From Bacteroidota bacterium (GTDB taxonomy: Bacteria > Bacteroidota > Bacteroidia > SXHM01): 64,000 bases of DNA. Where the stretch lies: NCBI GenBank assembly GCA_947479755.1, contig CANKAM010000008.1, positions 37,880 through 101,879 of the forward strand. Direction: 5' to 3'. Below are positions 3,321 through 54,678 of this stretch, in pieces; the first letter of the stretch is position 1, and each line of letters starts with the position of its first letter. The notes beneath the pieces are model-generated. The model was given only the letters and a program-made list of their open reading frames with translations. It was not told where the DNA came from and searched no databases. Position numbers and translations under genes: made by a program.

Positions 3321-3349
3321 TAAAAATTATATTTTTCGCAATATTACCC

Positions 3350-3377: not shown

Positions 3378-4490
3378 ATGAAGAAAGCACTGATAACAGG
3401 CGTAACAGGACAGGACGGAGCCTATCTCTCCGAATTTTTATTGAATAAAGGCTACGAAGTTCACGGAATAAAAAGAAGAAGTTCGCTCTTCAATACCGAC
3501 CGTATTGACCATATCTACGAAGACCCGCACCAGAAAGGCGCACGCTTTAAACTGCACTATGGAGATCTGAGCGATTCAAGCAATATTATCCGCATCATTC
3601 AGGAAGTAAAACCTGATGAAATTTATAATCTGGGAGCTATGTCGCATGTGAAGGTGAGCTTTGAATCACCGGAATATACTGCCGATGTAGATGGACTGGG
3701 CGCATTGCGCGTGCTGGAAGCTGTCCGCTTATTGGGTCTGGAAAAAACAACACGCATTTATCAGGCTTCTACTTCGGAATTGTATGGTCTGGTGCAGGAA
3801 GTTCCGCAAAGCGAAACAACACCTTTTTACCCGCGCTCGCCTTACGGTGTTGCCAAATTATACGGCTACTGGATAACCGTAAATTACCGCGAGGCCTATG
3901 GTATGTTTGCAGCTAACGGCATCTTGTTCAATCACGAAAGTCCTATAAGAGGGGAAACATTTGTATCGCGCAAAATTACAAGAGCTGTATCGCGCATTGC
4001 ATTGGGCCTGCAGGAAAAATTGTATATCGGAAACCTGGATGCCAAACGTGATTGGGGACATGCCAAAGATTATGTAGAAGCCATGTGGCTGATGATGCAG
4101 CAGGATGTTGCCGAAGACTTTGTTATTGCAACGGGAGTAACTACTATGGTTCGCGATTTTATAACATTGGCGTTCCGCCATGTGGGCATTGAAATTGAAT
4201 ATAAAGGCGAAGGAGTAAAAGAAACAGCTACAGTTGTTTCATCTTCTAATCCCGATTATTATGTGAAGCCGGGAACAGAGGTGTTGGCGGTGGATGAAAA
4301 ATATTTCCGTCCTTCGGAAGTGGAATTATTAATTGGTAACCCAACAAAGGCAAATACAAAACTCGGCTGGAAACCCAAACACGATTTACACTCGTTGATT
4401 AATGATATGATGGAGTCGGATTTGGAAGTAATGCGCAAGGAAAAAAGCCTTTCAGACAGCGGCTACAAGGTGAAGAACTATTACGAATAA
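3378..4490 (+). CDS. gmd: GDP-mannose 4,6-dehydratase
   Basis: [22 protein letters not shown]... and the 370-aa length are near-canonical for Gmd throughout, and fcl follows immediately. Confidence 0.95.
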
Positions 4491-4517
4491 ACTTAACGGA
4501 AAATCAGCTTAAATAAA

Positions 4518-4543
4518 CTTTGCGCTCTTTGCGCCTTTGCGAG
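4518..4543 (+). repeat. Cluster of three CTTTGCG heptamers (short interspersed motif, family D)
   Basis: CTTTGCGCTCTTTGCGCCTTTGCGAG lies 10 nt upstream of the fcl start. A four-copy cluster of the same heptamer lies at 57270-57310. Confidence 0.6.
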
Positions 4544-4552
4544 AAATAAAAC

Positions 4553-5503
4553 TTGAGAAAAGAAGGAAAAATATACATAGCTGGCCACCGCGGAATGGTA
4601 GGCTCTGCTATTCACAGAAAACTGAAAGCAGAAGGTTTCTCCAACTTTGTGTTTCGTACATCTGCTGAATTAGATTTGCGCAATCAGCAAGCGGTAAATG
4701 ATTTTTTTGCGGCAGAAAAACCGGACTATGTTTTTCTTGCTGCTGCCAAAGTTGGCGGCATTCAGGCCAACAATGTTTATCGTGCTGATTTTATTTACGA
4801 GAACCTGATGATTGAATGCAATGTCATTCATGCAGCTTACGCAAATAAAACGGAGAAGCTGATGTTTCTGGGCTCTTCCTGCATCTACCCGAAACTTGCA
4901 CCACAACCACTGAAAGAAGATTACCTGCTCACAGGCTTGCTGGAACAAACCAACGAGCCTTATGCCATCGCTAAAATTGCAGGAATAAAATTATGTGACT
5001 CGTATCGCAAGCAATACGGATGCAATTTCATTTCGGTAATGCCAACCAATCTGTATGGGCCGAATGATAATTATGATTTAGAAAAATCGCATGTGCTTCC
5101 GGCATTGATTCGCAAATTTCATGAAGCAAAAGTGGCAGGAAAAAGTGAAGTTGAAATATGGGGAAGCGGTACACCTTTACGTGAATTTTTGCATGTGGAT
5201 GATTTGGCCGATGCCTGCTATTACCTGATGCAGAACTACAATGAAGAAGGCCTTGTTAACATTGGTACAGGTAGCGACCTTTCTATTAAAGACCTTGCCC
5301 TGTTGGTGAAAAAGATTGTAGGCTTTAACGGTGAGTTGAAATTTAACGCATCAAAACCCGATGGCACACCCCGCAAGCTGATGGACGTAAGCAAACTTCA
5401 CTCCTTCGGTTGGAAACATAAGATAGATCTGGAACAGGGGATAACCATGGTTTACAGCGATCCTCAAACCGTTAGCAAGTTTCAAAAAGTAACTGTAGCC
5501 TGA
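4553..5503 (+). CDS. fcl: GDP-L-fucose synthase (GDP-4-keto-6-deoxymannose 3,5-epimerase/4-reductase)
   Basis: [15 protein letters not shown] matches the N-terminus of E. coli Fcl. An SDR fold with YAIAKIAG is present. It uses a TTG start and is adjacent to gmd. Confidence 0.9.
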
Positions 5504-17829: not shown

Positions 17830-18507
17830 CTATTTTGCTCTAACCTGAGCTATGTCACTCATAGCTCCGTGTCCGGTGGCGCCAAGCGCCCTTACACGAA
17901 ACTGATAAATGTGACCACTGATGAGGTTTGTAGCCTTGTACCTCGATGCGGTTACGGATTGAAGATGTTTCCATTCTCCGTTTCCCGCACCGGGGGTAGG
18001 TGTGCCGGGCATACCCGGAAGCATGCTCGCATTTCCACCATCACCGGTGAAGCCCAGATCTTTATATTCAAGCTCGAAAGCTTTGGCTGCTGTAACAGGA
18101 TCCCAACTCAAGTCGATTTCGCCTTCGGTAAGCGTACTTTCTGCCACAAGGTTTTGCACCTGTGTCATCTGGACTTTTGGTCCGCGTTGCTTCCTCAGTT
18201 CAAAACCCGAACTGATGATCTTATCAGCATCCCCATTGCTTGCGCTCTGAATATAGGCAGCAAGTTGCTTGATCAGCAATCTCAACTCTTTATCCCTCAG
18301 ATTCCTTGCGATTATCAGATTGCGGTCAAAGGCAGCGGCAGCGGTTATGGCGTTGCTCAGTGCGGTAATGGCCGCAAGAAAGGTCACAAGGTCAGGAATG
18401 GGAGTGAGAAAATTTGCATTTCCGGTCAGTTTACCGTGTAGGAGGGTGGCTTTTGCCGCCAACTGAACAGGATTTAGTCCGGAAGTTCCAACTTTAACAT
18501 TTGCCAT
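17830..18507 (-). CDS. Helical N-domain + fibronectin type III-like C-domain protein, no signal peptide (paralog 1)
   Basis: The C-terminus (IDLSWDPV...YKATNLISGHIYQFRVRALG) is FN3-like. The N-half aligns with the product of 51999-52715 (GNxxF..P.P, LAxYV...A.G....I..SGF). The gene is visibly more GC-rich than its neighbours. Confidence 0.7.
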   Translation of the reverse strand: MANVKVGTSGLNPVQLAAKATLLHGKLTGNANFLTPIPDLVTFLAAITALSNAITAAAAFDRNLIIARNLRDKELRLLIKQLAAYIQSASNGDADKIISSGFELRKQRGPKVQMTQVQNLVAESTLTEGEIDLSWDPVTAAKAFELEYKDLGFTGDGGNASMLPGMPGTPTPGAGNGEWKHLQSVTASRYKATNLISGHIYQFRVRALGATGHGAMSDIAQVRAK

Positions 18508-18710: not shown

Positions 18711-18960
18711 ATAATTTAGTTTTGCTTGTATTGATATAAAAAGCAATTCTTCAATTGTGTTTTTGCTTTTGTAAATAAAGAAAAGCCTTGCTTTAATAGT
18801 GAATTTGCTTTTTTTTAATTATAAAAAATGCGTTTACAAGTATGTTTTTGCTTTCTATAATTAACGAAGGTGTTTACTTAATAATGAATTTGCTTTTTAA
18901 AATTAAGAAAAGAGCTTACTTAATTATGTAACTGTTAATTTCTATTTAATAAAGCTGTTC
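18711..18960. repeat. Degenerate tandem array with ~42-bp period (about 6 units)
   Basis: Exact TTTGCTT heptamers start at 18721, 18762, 18804, 18847 and 18889 (spacings 41/42/43/42). A second motif, CTTnAATnnTG, occurs at 18749, 18791, ~18834, 18877 and 18919. Confidence 0.7.
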
Positions 18961-19159: not shown

Positions 19160-19906
19160 ATGATACTGAATAAAAAACTGATAGTAGTTTTGCCTGCCTA
19201 TAACGCTGCACTAACTCTGGAAAAAACATACAGCGAAATTCCTTTTGAAGTTGTAGATGATGTGGTATTGGTTGATGATGCCAGCAGTGATAACACCTCT
19301 GAAATTGGCAGCAAATTAGGAATTAAACACATTATCAGACACGAAAAAAATAAAGGCTATGGTGGCAACCAGAAAAGCTGCTACGATAAAGCGCTTGAAC
19401 TGGGTGCCGATATAGTTATCATGCTTCATCCTGATTATCAGTATACGCCTATGCTTATACAACCCATGGCTCATATTATTGCGAGTAATCTCTACCCGGT
19501 TGTATTGGGTTCGCGAATTCTTGGTAAGGGCGCTTTAAAGGGCGGTATGCCACTTTATAAATACATTTTTAACAGGTGTCTTACCCTTACTCAAAATATT
19601 CTGATGGGACAGAAACTTAGTGAGTACCATACCGGATATCGTGCATTTTCAAAAGAAGTACTTACTGCAATTGACTATCATGCAAACAGTGATGATTTTG
19701 TTTTTGATAATCAGATGCTTGCCCAGATATTTTATGCAGATTTTGAGATAGCCGAAGTAACCTGCCCTACCAAGTATTTTGACGAAGCATCATCCATTAA
19801 TTTTAAACGCAGTTCAATCTATGGATTAGGTGTATTGGCAACATCCCTTCAGTATTTTTTGGCAAAAGCAGGCATTATTAAACCGGCCATCTTCAAGAAA
19901 AAATGA
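19160..19906 (+). CDS. GT2 polyprenyl-phosphate glycosyltransferase (GtrB/ArnC/DPM1-like)
   Basis: VVLPAYNAALTLEKT ... VLVDDASSDNT ... MLHPDYQY is the short (248 aa) soluble GT2 form. GT-C-type membrane proteins follow directly. Confidence 0.75.
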   Translation: MILNKKLIVVLPAYNAALTLEKTYSEIPFEVVDDVVLVDDASSDNTSEIGSKLGIKHIIRHEKNKGYGGNQKSCYDKALELGADIVIMLHPDYQYTPMLIQPMAHIIASNLYPVVLGSRILGKGALKGGMPLYKYIFNRCLTLTQNILMGQKLSEYHTGYRAFSKEVLTAIDYHANSDDFVFDNQMLAQIFYADFEIAEVTCPTKYFDEASSINFKRSSIYGLGVLATSLQYFLAKAGIIKPAIFKKK

Positions 19907-37244: not shown

Positions 37245-37992
37245 TTAACTCTTTTTGTGTTGGATAATTAATAAGCACAGCCCGGTGTTTCCCCTGAAAA
37301 ACAAACATACTCCCCGCTGCTAATGCAGATGCTCCTGCATCTAATGCTGATTTAAAATCAGCAATTTTACCTGCGCCACCGCAAACAATAAGCGGAACAT
37401 TTACAGCCTGAGAAACTGATTTTATTAAAGCAGTATCATAGCCTTCCATGGCACTGTCGTGGTCAACGGAGTTTAGCAGGATTTCGCCTGCACCGTTTTT
37501 TGTCAGGTAAGCAGCAAATTCGGCAGGAGTGTGGTTGGTTAGCTTTTTATCGGCATGGTTGTAAACATAATGCTTGCCGAACAAATTAGTCTTTACATCA
37601 ATTCCGGCAACCATTGCTGAACTTCCGAATTTTTCAGCACCTTCTCTCAATAAATTAATGTTGCTGAAATTGGAGGCATTAAGAGAAACCTTTTCAACTC
37701 CGGCTTTCAGGATGGCTTTGATTTCTTCAATGGTTGTAATTCCACCACCGTAGCACAAAGGCATAAAACATTCTGAAGCCAGTTCAGAGATGTAAGCGAT
37801 ATTAGGTTTTCGTTTTTGTGCGCTTGCTGTTATGTCAAGATAAATGAGCTCATCAACTTCTTTTTCGTTGAAGATTTTTACAGCATTAAATGGGTCGCCA
37901 ATGTAAACAGGGTATTTGAATTTCCTTGTCTTGACAAGGCTTCCCTCGCTGTCGCTTAATAAAACCGGTATTACTCGAATGTTTTTGCGCAT
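37231..37992 (-). CDS. HisF-like cyclase subunit paralog (WbuZ-type, glycan amidation-associated)
   Basis: RVIPVLL...LVKTRKF...YIGDPFNAVKIFNEKEVDELIYLDI is the HisF fold signature. It is embedded in a glycan locus with no other his genes nearby. Confidence 0.8.
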   Translation of the reverse strand: MRKNIRVIPVLLSDSEGSLVKTRKFKYPVYIGDPFNAVKIFNEKEVDELIYLDITASAQKRKPNIAYISELASECFMPLCYGGGITTIEEIKAILKAGVEKVSLNASNFSNINLLREGAEKFGSSAMVAGIDVKTNLFGKHYVYNHADKKLTNHTPAEFAAYLTKNGAGEILLNSVDHDSAMEGYDTALIKSVSQAVNVPLIVCGGAGKIADFKSALDAGASALAAGSMFVFQGKHRAVLINYPTQKELISLA

Positions 37993-51998: not shown

Positions 51999-52715
51999 TT
52001 ACCCTTCCACCACTTTTTTGCTTACCACCACGCTTAGCGGGCTTACACCGCCTGCATTAGTAGCCCAGTAATACAAATAGTAGGTAGTGCCTACCGTCAG
52101 GTTGATGAATGTTTTTTTACGGTTCTTATTTAAATCAATGATGCCGCGCAGGGCTGCCTGAGCTATAGCAGCACCCGCTGCTGCCTCATTATCATTAATA
52201 ATAAGCTGTCCCAGTCCATTCATGGTTACCCATGCAGGTAGTTCCTCATCTGCCGTTAGTATAGTACTGTAGCTGTCGGCACCCGAAACCACTGCACAAT
52301 CGGCCAGCAGCTCACCTGCTCCACCTCGGGTAAGTGTTGCCCCTGTGGGTTGAAGCGGTGCACTAATTGGAGTAAGGTTGCTTTTAGTAGGCGTAAAACC
52401 TGCCAGAATAATGGTGTTTGGATTACCCAATGCCACCGTGTTTACATACACTGCCAGTGTATCCAAAGCAGCCATCAGGGCTTTCTTAGCTTCTTTATAC
52501 GGGCCAAGCTGTGCGGTGCCGCCTGCCTTATGAGCGGAAAGTTTGTTAATAAAATCGGTTAGCAATGCCTGAAATAGTGCTTCGGTCATTGGCGGCATTA
52601 CAAAAATCAAAGGATTTCCGAATATGCCGTTTTTTACGATGTTGGCAAATGTTTCTATCAGGTCTCTTTTTAAAGTATGATAGACAAGTTTGCATCTGAT
52701 TAATAGTTGTGCCAT
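51999..52715 (-). CDS. Helical N-domain + FN3-like C-domain protein, no signal peptide (paralog 2)
   Basis: The N-half aligns with 17830-18507 (GIFGNPLIFVMPPM..., LAVYVNTVALGNPNTIILAGFTPTK). The C-terminus is a beta-rich FN3-like region (TTYYLYYWATNAGGVSP). Confidence 0.65.
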   Translation of the reverse strand: MAQLLIRCKLVYHTLKRDLIETFANIVKNGIFGNPLIFVMPPMTEALFQALLTDFINKLSAHKAGGTAQLGPYKEAKKALMAALDTLAVYVNTVALGNPNTIILAGFTPTKSNLTPISAPLQPTGATLTRGGAGELLADCAVVSGADSYSTILTADEELPAWVTMNGLGQLIINDNEAAAGAAIAQAALRGIIDLNKNRKKTFINLTVGTTYYLYYWATNAGGVSPLSVVVSKKVVEG

Positions 52716-52812
52716 GATTAGTATATTTATTAGTTAATGATTTTTATTGTTTTTAAATTGTATCAAAAAACACGCTTCGTTTAGTTGAGTTTTAGTGCAA
52801 AGTGTCTTTCAG

Positions 52813-53064
52813 GTAAGAGCAACTGTCTTTGGAGTTACTCTACAGGTCTTTGAAGTAAGACCAACTATCTTTGGAGTTACTCAACAGGTCTTTGAAGTAA
52901 GACCAACTGTCTTTTGAGTTACTCAACAAGCCTTTAAAGTAAGAGCAACTGTCTTTTGAGTTACTCAACAAGCCTTTGAAGTAAGAGCAACTGTCTTTTG
53001 AGTTACTCAACAAGCCTTTGAAGTAAGAGTAACTGTCTTTCGGGTTACTCAACAAGCCTTTGAA
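52813..53064. repeat. Tandem array of six exact-length 42-bp units (plus decayed partial units on both sides, ~52790-53100)
   Basis: The units start at 52813, 52855, 52897, 52939, 52981 and 53023. Units 4 and 5 are identical and the others differ from them at 2-5 positions. Each unit contains the palindrome GAGT-T-ACTC. Confidence 0.95.
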
Positions 53065-53257
53065 GTAAGTTCAACTGTGCTTTGCGTAAGTTTAAAGGTA
53101 ATATGCGCCTTAGAAAAGGCAAATGTTAGTATTCCAGTATGTCAAAGAGCGCTGTCAACAAACCGTGTTTGTAATTGACGGCACAAAAATGCCCCATAGT
53201 GCCAACACTACCTTAGACCTTTACAATAAATTTAAAGAAGAGAATTAGACAAAAAGG

Positions 53258-53998
53258 CTAATTCAATACCAGCACCCTTTCGGGATACAGATGGCTGAAC
53301 TGCCCGTAGAGCAAGATTAGTTGGCGCAGTTTTTCTACATTAAAGGCATCTTTTATTTCGCGGATGTAGAGGTTGACCGAAGCACGTGATTTATCTATTT
53401 TTTCCTCTACCTCCTGCTTGGTGGTGCATACGGTAAGGTAATACATGGTAAGCTGCGCATATTCAGACATGCCCAGGTAGGTGGCATACAATTTTTTGGC
53501 CTCGGCAGCACTGCAGGGCTGCACCGGGGGATGCTCCATAACATCGCCCGACAGAGCGGTTACCAGTGTAACTATGCACGTAGGACTTTGACGAAAACCC
53601 TGCATAGCATGCGATTGAAAAGCAAGCAGCTTGTGTGTGCCATCGGCACATTCCAGCCGCATCAGGGTATCCAGGTCGTAGGGGCTGCGGGTATTAAAAT
53701 GGCTAGTGTAGCGGTCAATAGTGCTCATGCAGCAGGCCTTTCGCATCAGTGCTGCCAGCAGCATAGGGTCTTTGCTGGGCCCCTGTCCTTCGGCATAGCC
53801 CAGTAATTTATCCAGTGCAGGGTTTATATAAACGGGCTGATTATCATCCAGCGGGTGTATAATAAGACCGTAAGGAACCAGCTGCCCAATGGTATCCATC
53901 AGTTTATAGCTGCGCACAATTAAAAGCTCGGCAGGTCCCAGCTTTTTCTGAAACGCTTTCTCAATCTTATCATGTTCTGCTCTAAGGAAGTCTAGCAT
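53258..53998 (-). CDS. Transcription regulator candidate: PAS-like N-domain + LuxR/FixJ-type C-terminal HTH
   Basis: The C-terminus ...TTKQEVEEKIDKSRASVNLYIREIKDAFNVEKLRQLILL fits the LuxR-type HTH spacing. The N-half (GLIIHPLDDNQPVYINPALDKLLGY) is PAS-like. This call rests on pattern recognition only. Confidence 0.5.
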   Translation of the reverse strand: MLDFLRAEHDKIEKAFQKKLGPAELLIVRSYKLMDTIGQLVPYGLIIHPLDDNQPVYINPALDKLLGYAEGQGPSKDPMLLAALMRKACCMSTIDRYTSHFNTRSPYDLDTLMRLECADGTHKLLAFQSHAMQGFRQSPTCIVTLVTALSGDVMEHPPVQPCSAAEAKKLYATYLGMSEYAQLTMYYLTVCTTKQEVEEKIDKSRASVNLYIREIKDAFNVEKLRQLILLYGQFSHLYPERVLVLN

Positions 53999-54060
53999 AG
54001 TTTGAAATTTTTGAATTAGGGGTAGCTAAATTAATAACTTTTTCTTAAACGGCAAATTTT

Positions 54061-54068
54061 GGGGGGGG
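54061..54068. repeat. Homopolymeric G8 tract
   Basis: GGGGGGGG lies 63 nt upstream of the regulator start at 53998; it reads as poly-C on the coding strand. Confidence 0.9.
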
Positions 54069-54122
54069 TGATTTGCTCTTGAAGATAAATTTATTTATGT
54101 TTACAAAGTCTGACGTTTATCA

Positions 54123-54260
54123 GGGTATATACAAGTTAGCAACAAAAATATTCAACAAATTGTATCACCCTTTGACTATTTATAAAAAGAACAAAACCTT
54201 CGCAAGTCTAACCAGCGGGGTGTGGATATGCGAAACAAAGATTCGGGTATATACAAGTTA
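54123..54260. promoter_or_regulatory. Two exact copies of GGGTATATACAAGTTA, 122 bp apart (candidate operator pair)
   Basis: The copies are at 54123-54138 and 54245-54260. Each contains the perfect 8-bp palindrome GTATATAC. Confidence 0.4.
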
Positions 54261-54414
54261 TAGGCAAGTTTACCAGACGACACCATCAACGGTTAATCAA
54301 CGGGCTGACCACCCAACAGTGACAGACAAAAAATAAAAGTGGAGACCAGCAACCACTATAAAAACGGGGCGACACCGAAAAGCCTAATGTGTAGAAGAAG
54401 GAAATAAGGAATTA

Positions 54415-54678
54415 ATGAAAAGATATTCTATCTCTAATGCTTATCCCAACCCTGCAAAAAATACAACCCGCATTGATTATACCTTGCCTGATGGAGTTAA
54501 TAATGGCGTAATTGTTTTTTATGACCTGCAAGGCAACGAAATAAAACGTTTTAAAGTTGATAAAACATTCGACCATCTTTTGGTTTCTACTGCCGATCTT
54601 TCTTCCGGAACCTATTATTTCCAGCTTCAAACCGCTTTACAAAATAGCGAAGGCAAAAAAATTGTAGTGATAAAATAA
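54415..54678 (+). pseudogene. Orphan T9SS type-A C-terminal sorting domain (gene remnant lacking any passenger domain or signal peptide)
   Basis: The 87-aa ORF is essentially only the CTD (YPNPAKNTTRIDYTLP...LSSGTYYFQLQT...KKIVVIK). The upstream 340 bp is non-coding. Confidence 0.5.

Follow-up and report, generated by a model that had tools for sequence, protein, structure and literature searches.

The element described here is a tandem array of 42-bp units on contig CANKAM010000008.1 of a Bacteroidota bacterium (assembly GCA_947479755.1), found within a stretch of 64,000 nucleotides (contig positions 37,880 to 101,879) that we call the window and number from its first letter. The array lies between two minus-strand open reading frames (ORFs), one of 246 aa, whose stop codon is upstream, and one of 238 aa, whose ATG is 90-98 nt downstream. 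Read in the direction of these genes, the interval holds in turn a putative promoter box, a boxA of the type known from rRNA operons, a small predicted hairpin, the array and an A-rich leader (Table 1). Comparison with related loci indicates that the array is the local copy of a conserved cassette, made up of promoter, boxA, an array phased at multiples of 21 bp (21n), leader and gene.

Table 1. Features of the array locus, in window coordinates and in the order of the forward strand.
Feature	Position	Strand	Basis
238-aa gene, helical N-terminal domain and C-terminal Fn3-like sandwich	51999-52715	-	AlphaFold2 (AF2) model, Foldseek
A-rich 90-nt leader, array to start codon	52716-52805	-	no promoter-like box; inside the X17 RNA contig
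Tandem array, six full 42-bp units (52813-53064) with decayed edges	52806-53084	-	Tandem Repeats Finder (TRF), unit cutting, RNA contigs
11-bp core ACTYMAAAGRC, twelve register positions 21 bp apart	52825-53066	-	column conservation in a 21-bp frame, pattern search
Small hairpin UGCCUU-UUCU-AAGGCG between boxA and array	53106-53121	-	predicted, -6.6 kcal/mol, z = -2.2
rRNA-type boxA GCTCTTTGACATACTGG	53150-53134	-	16/17 identical to family consensus GTTCTTTGACATACTGG
Putative promoter -7 box CATTTTTG, then conserved TGCCGTCAAT	53191-53174	-	start site would lie a few nt downstream
246-aa ORF, divergent regulator with PAS-like N-terminus and C-terminal GerE/LuxR-type helix-turn-helix (HTH)	53258-53998	-	profile-profile comparison

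TRF calls the array with a period of 42, 6.6 copies, 91% matches, 0% indels and a score of 416, and reports a weaker 21-bp sub-period across the same stretch. Cut into units, it gives starts from 52813 to 53023 with 4, 5, 2, 0, 0 and 3 mismatches to units 4 and 5, which are identical, so that the six-unit description in the initial annotation of this DNA, with its unit starts, mismatch counts and identity of units 4 and 5, was reproduced exactly. The decayed partial units that it had placed on both flanks are also there, as a decayed half unit at 53065 (18/42 mismatches) and as 21 nt preceding 52813 that agree with a half unit at 11/21 positions by eye, and the weaker half-period that it had noted is borne out both by the TRF sub-period and by an identity within the array of 0.50 at lag 21 against 0.33-0.34 at lags 20 and 22. 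Each half of the unit has six matches at three mismatches or fewer, all in the array and none elsewhere in the 64 kb, against an expectation of 0 in 100 shuffles, and the window contains no other high-scoring TRF array, the runner-up scoring 108. A degenerate 26-mer of the unit had 0 matches in 185,579 species genomes, a collection that does not include the source species; the 42-bp unit is private to this lineage. A second tandem duplication with the same period as the main array, of 2.0 copies with 80% match, is present at 18847-18928, between the divergent ORFs 17830-18507 (minus strand) and 19160-19906 (plus strand), and has no boxA nearby.

About 40 loci encoding relatives of the 238-aa protein (numbered L001 and upwards) were gathered from genome, metagenome and assembly collections. 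Some 30 of these, from many metagenome-assembled genomes (MAGs) of freshwater Bacteroidota, have an array of their own, and nearly every locus for which 300 nt or more of upstream sequence are available has one, including several paralogs in one MAG. The TRF periods are 21, 42, 63, 84 or 126 bp, and the arrays end about 30-250 nt (mostly 30-100) before the ATG. Of 24 arrays taken together, 20 have a period of 42 bp, three of 63 bp and one of 41 bp, i.e. 21n in 23/24, and in most of them adjacent positions agree far more often at lag 21 than at lag 20 or 22. The consensus units themselves are unrelated between loci whose Fn3 proteins, as we call the family of the 238-aa protein, are about 60% identical or less. 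Between adjacent copies there are ~921 substitutions and ~21 indel columns (~2%), with 18/24 arrays indel-free; as substitutions so far outnumber indels, the length of the unit must be conserved far more strictly than its sequence. The same phase is visible in four paralogs that TRF does not detect (L002, L003, L018 and L023), where the decayed copies are just 45-50% identical to one another and the top autocorrelation lags are exactly 21, 42, 63 and 84 nt (z = 3-5). The strict helical phasing proposed for the window array is thus real and is constrained throughout the family. The accompanying view, that high unit identity signals recent expansion or homogenisation, holds in its second part: high unit identity reflects local homogenisation, and the architecture itself is old and family-wide. 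A private recent expansion, however, does not fit a cassette that is family-wide and whose decayed arrays keep phase.

These data bear on two other explanations. According to the first, the array is a satellite without function, formed when DNA prone to slippage expanded in a leader with high transcription, and was kept by concerted evolution. High unit identity with edges more diverged than the centre, turnover so fast that units are unrecognisable at Fn3 identities of 60% or below, and alleles that differ by plus or minus one unit are all consistent with such an origin, which we nevertheless consider very improbable, given an array at essentially every family member, distant paralogs included, the maintenance of 21n with ~2% indel columns despite saturating substitution, short cores held in exact register in decayed arrays, and the co-occurrence with a dedicated boxA of what is the sole strong array in 64 kb. 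According to the second, intrinsic DNA curvature is the selected trait, the 21-bp periodicity adding bends in phase to give a curved segment that modulates transcription. This would explain why the period is conserved without the sequence, and in a wedge model the ratio of end-to-end to contour length is ~0.76 for 21n against 0.96-0.99 with 2 or 5 extra bases. Real units are however no more curved than shuffled units (median percentile 0.41 in that model), the arrays of L001, L015, L022 and L034 are predicted straight (0.98-0.99), and the conserved cores of decayed arrays are left unexplained, which makes selection for curvature hardly credible.

In the decayed arrays conservation shrinks to a short, unbroken core whose spacing is fixed. 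Nine CGATATCG-type sites follow one another in L003 in exact steps of 42 bp, and L021 retains ACAATCGTAT every 21 bp. The corresponding core in the window array, ACTYMAAAGRC, is common to both half-units and is present, with at most one mismatch, at 11/12 register positions (52825, 52846 and so on to 53014, and 53056), all on the minus strand and in exact 21-bp steps, the position at 53035 having the variant of unit 6. As in operator and iteron arrays, an iterated core with a looser spacer (nine copies in L003, L021, and 11/12 positions in the window) is combined with a constrained integral-turn spacing (23/24 arrays and the four decayed arrays). The combination of core, free spacer and a spacing of two turns of B-DNA is the signature of iterated protein-binding sites displayed on one face of the duplex. 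The CGATATCG core of L003 is moreover a loop-less 8-bp palindrome, and because it has no loop it cannot be an RNA hairpin. Our preferred reading, at a probability of roughly 0.45, is that the array consists of phased, predicted protein-binding sites on DNA, lying in a boxA-protected untranslated leader and gating expression of the gene behind it.

The palindrome that the initial annotation had seen in every unit, and had taken for the kind of site bound by a dimeric HTH protein, is present as a 6-1-6 inverted repeat, TTGAGT-T-ACTCAA, in units 3-5 (e.g. 52956-52968). It carries little weight alone, because an inverted repeat of equal arm length arises in 12% of shuffled units (p = 0.12), and it is not a feature of the family; the iterated element is instead the 11-bp direct core, once per 21 bp. 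A palindromic core was also considered as a mark of LuxR-type neighbours, but the association is not significant and the trend disappeared once L014, L034 and L158 had been typed.

Alignment of the 130 nt upstream of the arrays revealed a conserved (G/C)GTTCTTTGACATACTGG followed by an A-rich tract. If up to four mismatches are allowed, the motif is found in sense at 15 loci, at a distance of 6-112 nt before the array, with its core GTTCTTTGA at two more, and no array locus has it in antisense; in the window the array begins 49 nt after it. The exact 17-mer GTTCTTTGACATACTGG occurs at a minimum of 119 genome loci, mostly in Bacteroidota, and at seven of ten sampled loci Rfam places it in a 16S-23S spacer, in sense and after the spacer tRNAs, ~50-140 nt (mostly 50-70) upstream of the 23S rRNA and with the same A/purine-rich continuation. 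The motif resembles boxA, and this position before 23S is the classical place of a spacer boxA. The family motif therefore matches the boxA of rRNA operons in the same phylum, in sense, after a putative promoter and before a long untranslated stretch, there being 379-578 nt without a conserved ORF from boxA to the ATG.

The exact 17-mer was also encountered away from rRNA genes. In a Crocinitomicaceae MAG (L141, JBIIJN010000071.1, reverse strand ~3636-4740) it precedes by 66 nt a genuine CRISPR array with 16 repeats, a 36-nt repeat GTTGTGGTTTGATTAAAGATTGGAAAGAACGATATT and 30-nt spacers, and so provides a Bacteroidota case of a CRISPR array led by boxA; boxA before CRISPR arrays is described as protecting long untranslated transcripts made of repeats against premature termination (PMC7862264, citing Stringer et al. 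2020). Other such sites are in Pedobacter miscanthi (L076/L083), Filimonas zeae (L111), Bacteroides gallinarum (L103), L070 and L097. Those in cultured Bacteroidota are followed by structured-looking sequence and may be further non-rRNA Nus targets.

Boxes of the -7 type, defined by an invariant TTTG with no more than one mismatch in TA, are found in the 80 nt before boxA at 12/16 loci, against 3.4 expected, and are absent from all 24 array-to-ATG spacers, against 1.3 expected, these spacers being A-rich and leader-like. TAnnTTTG is the promoter consensus of Bacteroidota. A frequent form of the box has the signature TTTGTnCCGTCAAT, which recurs in L021, L040, L034 and L165. A scan of the sigma-70 type for promoters and terminators returned weak consensus matches, and the 'terminators' within the array were artefacts of the repeats. 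AACATTTG (53127-53120), a -7-like box after boxA, was considered as an alternative promoter and rejected, as it is specific to the window and not conserved at other loci. The related signature TTTGT(G/A/T)CCGTCAAT recurs between a PAS-like plus LuxR-type regulator and its downstream gene, with or without an array (L165 ~1005-1022, L167 ~3324-3340, L168 ~2390-2408 and window 53174-53191), and may represent a regulator-dependent promoter or the -10 region (CGTC) of an alternative sigma factor.

Between boxA and array the linker is structured (sense z < -1.5) in 7/14 loci, with a mean z of -1.98 in sense and -1.04 in antisense, which is no more than suggestive of a hairpin as part of the cassette. 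A 35-bp segment that includes boxA (53126-53160) has twice the local depth in the DNA runs X8 and X9 and is joined in the assembly graph to other sequence, with a joint from 53160 to 54245 and a loose end at 53126. The joint could be taken for a 1084-bp deletion in a strain lacking the regulator, but it looks like a connection in the graph that passes via the boxA 35-mer to a paralog. By eye, the loose end agrees with leader sequence of the L019 type (CACTTAAGCGTTAAGTCGCTTTA). A paralogous cassette with the same boxA region thus seems to be present in these lakes as well, possibly within one and the same genome.

The locus is present in three freshwater metatranscriptomes, with contigs that cover the 238-aa gene. 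One 266-nt contig of X17 (52656-52921) runs from the interior of the ORF through the spacer into the array, and two of X21 (52958-53029 and 53000-53097) cover distal units; the array is transcribed, in RNA contiguous with the 238-aa gene. Across 20 kb the RNA contigs leave many gaps and fall mainly on this gene, which takes three of the four X17 contigs and is the most consistently detected transcript in the three metatranscriptomes, and such a distribution argues against uniform carry-over of DNA. The 5' part of the 246-aa ORF was also found in RNA, in a contig of X16 (53757-54000).

These results alter the model in the initial annotation, namely a classical upstream operator or activator array for a dimeric HTH regulator, with the promoter between array and ATG. 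It has in its favour the LuxR-type regulator next door, the 6-1-6 palindrome in helically phased units, and the fact that activator-dependent promoters often lack consensus boxes. However, the RNA contig is unbroken from ORF through spacer to array, other contigs cover the distal units, and a relaxed -7 box is found in none of the spacers while being common upstream of boxA. A sense boxA before the array would be purposeless if the array were not transcribed, in the XRE subgroup the array starts right at the stop codon of the regulator gene and would be co-transcribed with it, and the palindrome is neither significant nor general. The placing of an upstream operator is therefore not upheld, as the array lies downstream of the putative promoter and boxA, is in RNA, and is followed by a spacer without a promoter box, and we rate this explanation as improbable.

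A transcribed array might be translated, its 21-bp period corresponding to seven codons and hence its unit to a 14-residue, two-heptad repeat peptide, as in the 71-aa ORF 52840-53055 (minus strand). Sense ORFs do cross the array at some loci (102 aa in L001), and an ORF beginning MITSAPN is found at four XRE-subgroup loci. But 11/23 arrays, that of the window over its full length included, are closed by stops in all six frames, and open frames are no commoner in sense (12/23) than in antisense (9/23), so there is no conserved open sense frame such as a repeat protein would have. Periods are only 21n and never 39 or 45, which coding would permit, and changes between related units hit codon positions 1 and 2. 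The passages on boxA in PMC12360218 and PMC7862264 further present it as marking untranslated RNA. Translation is accordingly an extremely improbable function, and the description of the window array as non-coding stands. The MITSAPN ORFs start right after the regulator stop and run through the whole array (L017 896-1288, L018 2066-2377 in a decayed array, L020 2604-2978, and frame 1 of L022); the antisense frame of the L018 array is open too, and composition may explain the ORF.

If the array acts without being translated, it could also act as RNA, either as a multivalent scaffold for a factor that binds RNA (the 238-aa protein itself or a global factor) and controls translation, stability or packaging of the mRNA, or as a boxA-controlled, Rho-dependent attenuator. 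Several observations suit such a role: the array is in RNA behind a boxA, as are functional non-coding repeat transcripts (rRNA, CRISPR arrays), 17/23 arrays have an A-rich sense strand, several have next to no structure as RNA, which would be expected for single-stranded sites or Rho loading, and the array co-occurs with the gene and not with one regulator family. BoxA, whose role is reviewed in PMC12360218, can also promote termination, as in suhB (same review). Exact 21n with few indels, on the other hand, fits the geometry of B-DNA and has no obvious basis in single-stranded RNA, and the loop-less palindrome in the L003 core is typical of a dimer on duplex DNA. The arrays give no sense-specific structure signal: a hairpin conserved in each unit was rejected, as four-unit arrays fold no better than arrays of shuffled units (mean z of unit folding -0.8 in sense and -1.0 in antisense, some arrays being nearly unstructured), and Rfam has no match in the region at gathering threshold, where a structured cis-regulatory RNA of a known family would have been matched. 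Searches of sequence and fold found no RNA-binding domain in the 238-aa protein, and a skew of C over G is not general. We regard action as RNA as possible, though unlikely. The array was also considered as a CRISPR array and rejected: whole 42-bp units and both 21-bp halves repeat, leaving no unique spacers, in contrast to the true CRISPR array of L141.

The mechanism that we propose for phased binding sites on DNA follows from the order of the cassette, in which a promoter with a -7-type box is followed by an rRNA-type boxA, often a small hairpin, the 21n array, the A-rich leader and the ATG. The array would form the core of a ~0.46-kb leader of the 238-aa gene that is transcribed and untranslated. 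By analogy with rRNA operons and CRISPR arrays, boxA would recruit NusB/NusE, so that polymerase could cross the untranslated array without Rho-dependent termination, and would shield unblocked polymerases from Rho over ~0.4-0.55 kb of untranslated RNA. The array would present, on one face of the duplex and inside the transcription unit, a row of sequence-specific protein-binding sites whose occupancy gates the polymerases that reach the ORF, either as a multi-site roadblock or as a repressive filament, the number of whole units setting the strength of the gate. Both binding and gating are inferred, the latter because the sites lie between promoter/boxA and ORF. The binder would be specific to each locus, and the regulator encoded next door, here of the LuxR type, is an obvious but unproven candidate.

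That regulator has itself no match in Pfam, NCBIfam, PHROGs or PADLOC. An exhaustive HMMER search places the 246-aa ORF in a small family of ~237-246 aa, one member of which has weak PAS matches, and profile-profile comparison (hhalign) of this family with the GerE-domain regulators of L010/L038/L040 gave a probability of 97.9% and E = 6e-13 over 235 columns, including the C-terminal GerE HTH. The neighbouring regulator of the initial annotation is thereby supported, as a divergent PAS-like plus LuxR/GerE-type protein, and it may be regarded as a candidate binder of the array. Genes for DNA-binding proteins adjoin at least 15 loci and belong to five families or more, assigned by Pfam or profile as LytTR (L001, L019, L032), GerE/LuxR (L010, L038, L040, L014), AraC (L021, L039 and weakly L013) and XRE (L017, L018, L020, L034), with a DUF4248-like gene at L158 recognised by eye. 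A LytTR 9-mer is present in 3/3 LytTR-adjacent arrays and in 6/21 others, a weak enrichment (p about 0.04), and in L001 it recurs at regular 42-bp steps. Co-divergence of regulator and array was compared in XRE and LytTR pairs, with a mixed outcome: in the XRE trio array similarity climbs with regulator identity while Fn3 identity is nearly constant.

Several observations weigh against gating by bound protein behind a boxA. The units of L001 and L032 are 71% similar though their LytTR proteins are 27% identical, unit symmetry is independent of the type of regulator, and several array loci have no recognisable regulator nearby. The closest relatives of the window regulator flank other genes, with the same promoter signature but neither boxA nor array, so the array must belong to the Fn3-family gene; it tracks this downstream gene and not the regulator, and the neighbouring regulators may act simply at the promoter. 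At about one third of array loci no boxA can be recognised. The RNA contigs are Logan unitigs of low depth and without strand information, for which carry-over of DNA is formally possible, and they end at 53097, 37 nt short of boxA, with none over 53098-53400, so that they bear on array and leader and not on boxA or the start site; in the assembly graph the 35-mer around boxA is a branch in common with a paralog. The consensus used for the promoter and the notion of a roadblock, finally, are general background and do not come from data on this organism.

The predicted dependence of gating on whole units can be set beside the copy numbers, all of which come from short-read assemblies. At the window locus all three assemblies that span the array have 6.6 copies, shorter contigs ending inside the array, and the variation in copy number that had been suggested is not seen among them. 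Whole-unit differences are seen at sister loci, where the alleles L035/L037 (42 bp) and L025/L026 (63 bp) are exactly one unit apart with flanks ~99% identical. The array of L016 seems to hold an assembly gap.

Each part of this arrangement has known counterparts. The boxA/Nus leaders of rRNA operons and CRISPR arrays likewise have a sense boxA soon after the promoter and a long untranslated repeat transcript, and the same 17-mer stands in Bacteroidota rRNA spacers and before a CRISPR array. Here, however, a protein-coding gene has the repeat RNA as its leader, unique spacers and a cas context are both absent, and the period is locked to 21n bp, pointing to a role at the level of DNA; binding of Nus factors is assumed by analogy. 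F plasmid sopC (12 x 43 bp), R1 parC and plasmid iterons are arrays bound by a cognate DNA-binding protein. They resemble the arrays described here in unit size, in a short core that is sometimes palindromic, in phasing and in having a sequence specific to the locus, whereas the present arrays are chromosomal and found at many paralogs, have no partition ATPase or Rep gene, lie inside a transcription unit behind boxA, and adjoin genes for DNA-binding proteins from at least five unrelated families.

The direct-repeat operators of LytTR and AraC proteins (AgrA, ComE, araI1-I2) are spaced ~21 bp centre to centre. This matches the spacing of two helical turns, and LytTR and AraC genes adjoin several arrays, but the arrays have 12-20 sites instead of two, lie downstream of the promoter and keep the same geometry beside LuxR, XRE or DUF4248-type genes or no regulator at all. 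Roadblock operators inside transcription units (LacI at O2, PurR in purB, CodY/CcpA) consist of one or two sites, and share with the arrays protein-binding sites, here predicted, between promoter and ORF; to our knowledge no natural phased array of 12-20 sites has been described together with boxA. Phase-variable contingency repeats, and the ToxR heptad repeats upstream of ctxAB, have units of 1-9 bp. They too are tandem repeats located 5' of a gene, and they can vary in copy number from strain to strain, whereas the 21/42-bp units here are outside both the ORF and the promoter elements (in the window 90 nt from the ATG and 49 nt after boxA), and as the array is not between promoter elements or in the ORF, its copy number cannot switch frame or promoter spacing.

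Literature searches found no description of such a cassette or of arrays of this sort. We tentatively suggest that the arrays represent either a new class of cis-regulatory module, which might be called a phased-iteron leader, with 10-20 locus-specific phased sites in a boxA-protected 5' region providing each paralog with a private, tunable elongation gate, or the first multivalent RNA scaffold of this kind to occur naturally in the leader of a bacterial mRNA; in the former, and with the same reserve, the sequence of the sites would evolve fast while their phase stays frozen. Nus/boxA function has so far been tied to rRNA, a few leaders and CRISPR arrays, and phased arrays to plasmid centromeres, iterons and operators upstream of promoters. 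If the proposal is true, Nus/boxA antitermination and a helically phased array of sites are joined here in a hitherto undescribed manner, and Bacteroidota employ an rRNA-type boxA outside rRNA. With one geometry and unrelated sites, the ~30 natural variants would offer, ready to hand, a test of how gene output is set by spacing, copy number and site identity, and they bear on how a regulator and its sites could co-evolve. The arrays also break short-read assemblies, whose contigs end within them, and they flag an abundant, expressed and wholly uncharacterised protein family in freshwater Bacteroidota.

The 238-aa protein that defines this family has 36 homologs, all unannotated. In the AF2 model (pLDDT 83) a helical N-terminal domain, including a helix of 50 residues, is followed by the C-terminal Fn3-like sandwich, for which Foldseek found Fn3 matches only. 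The sequence has no match in Pfam, NCBIfam or PADLOC, a weak, non-significant match to a minor tail protein in PHROGs (E = 0.066) and weak Fn3 matches among PDB sequences (best E = 0.007), and no signal peptide is evident by eye. At six loci (L001 4895-6859 on the minus strand, L010, L017, L018, L020 and L022) large collagen-like repeat proteins (Gly-X-Y, 9-bp periodic) are encoded convergently just downstream of the family gene, and these neighbours may hint at the role of the Fn3 protein.

Genes for a tyrosine integrase or for a transposase associated with repetitive extragenic palindromes (REP) or IS200-like adjoin several cassettes (upstream of L016/L035/L037 at ~73-1089, L168 402-1460 and L025 1550-2257, all on the minus strand), which suggests that the cassettes sit in mobile or recombination-prone regions. 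Upstream of the window regulator gene, a full-length DUF805 RNA motif (RF03081, 75.8 bits, E = 3e-12) is found on the plus strand at 54334-54401. It lies directly upstream of an 87-aa ORF (54415-54678) that holds little beyond a C-terminal sorting domain for type IX secretion (T9SS; Por_Secre_tail), an odd partner for a DUF805 cis-regulatory motif.

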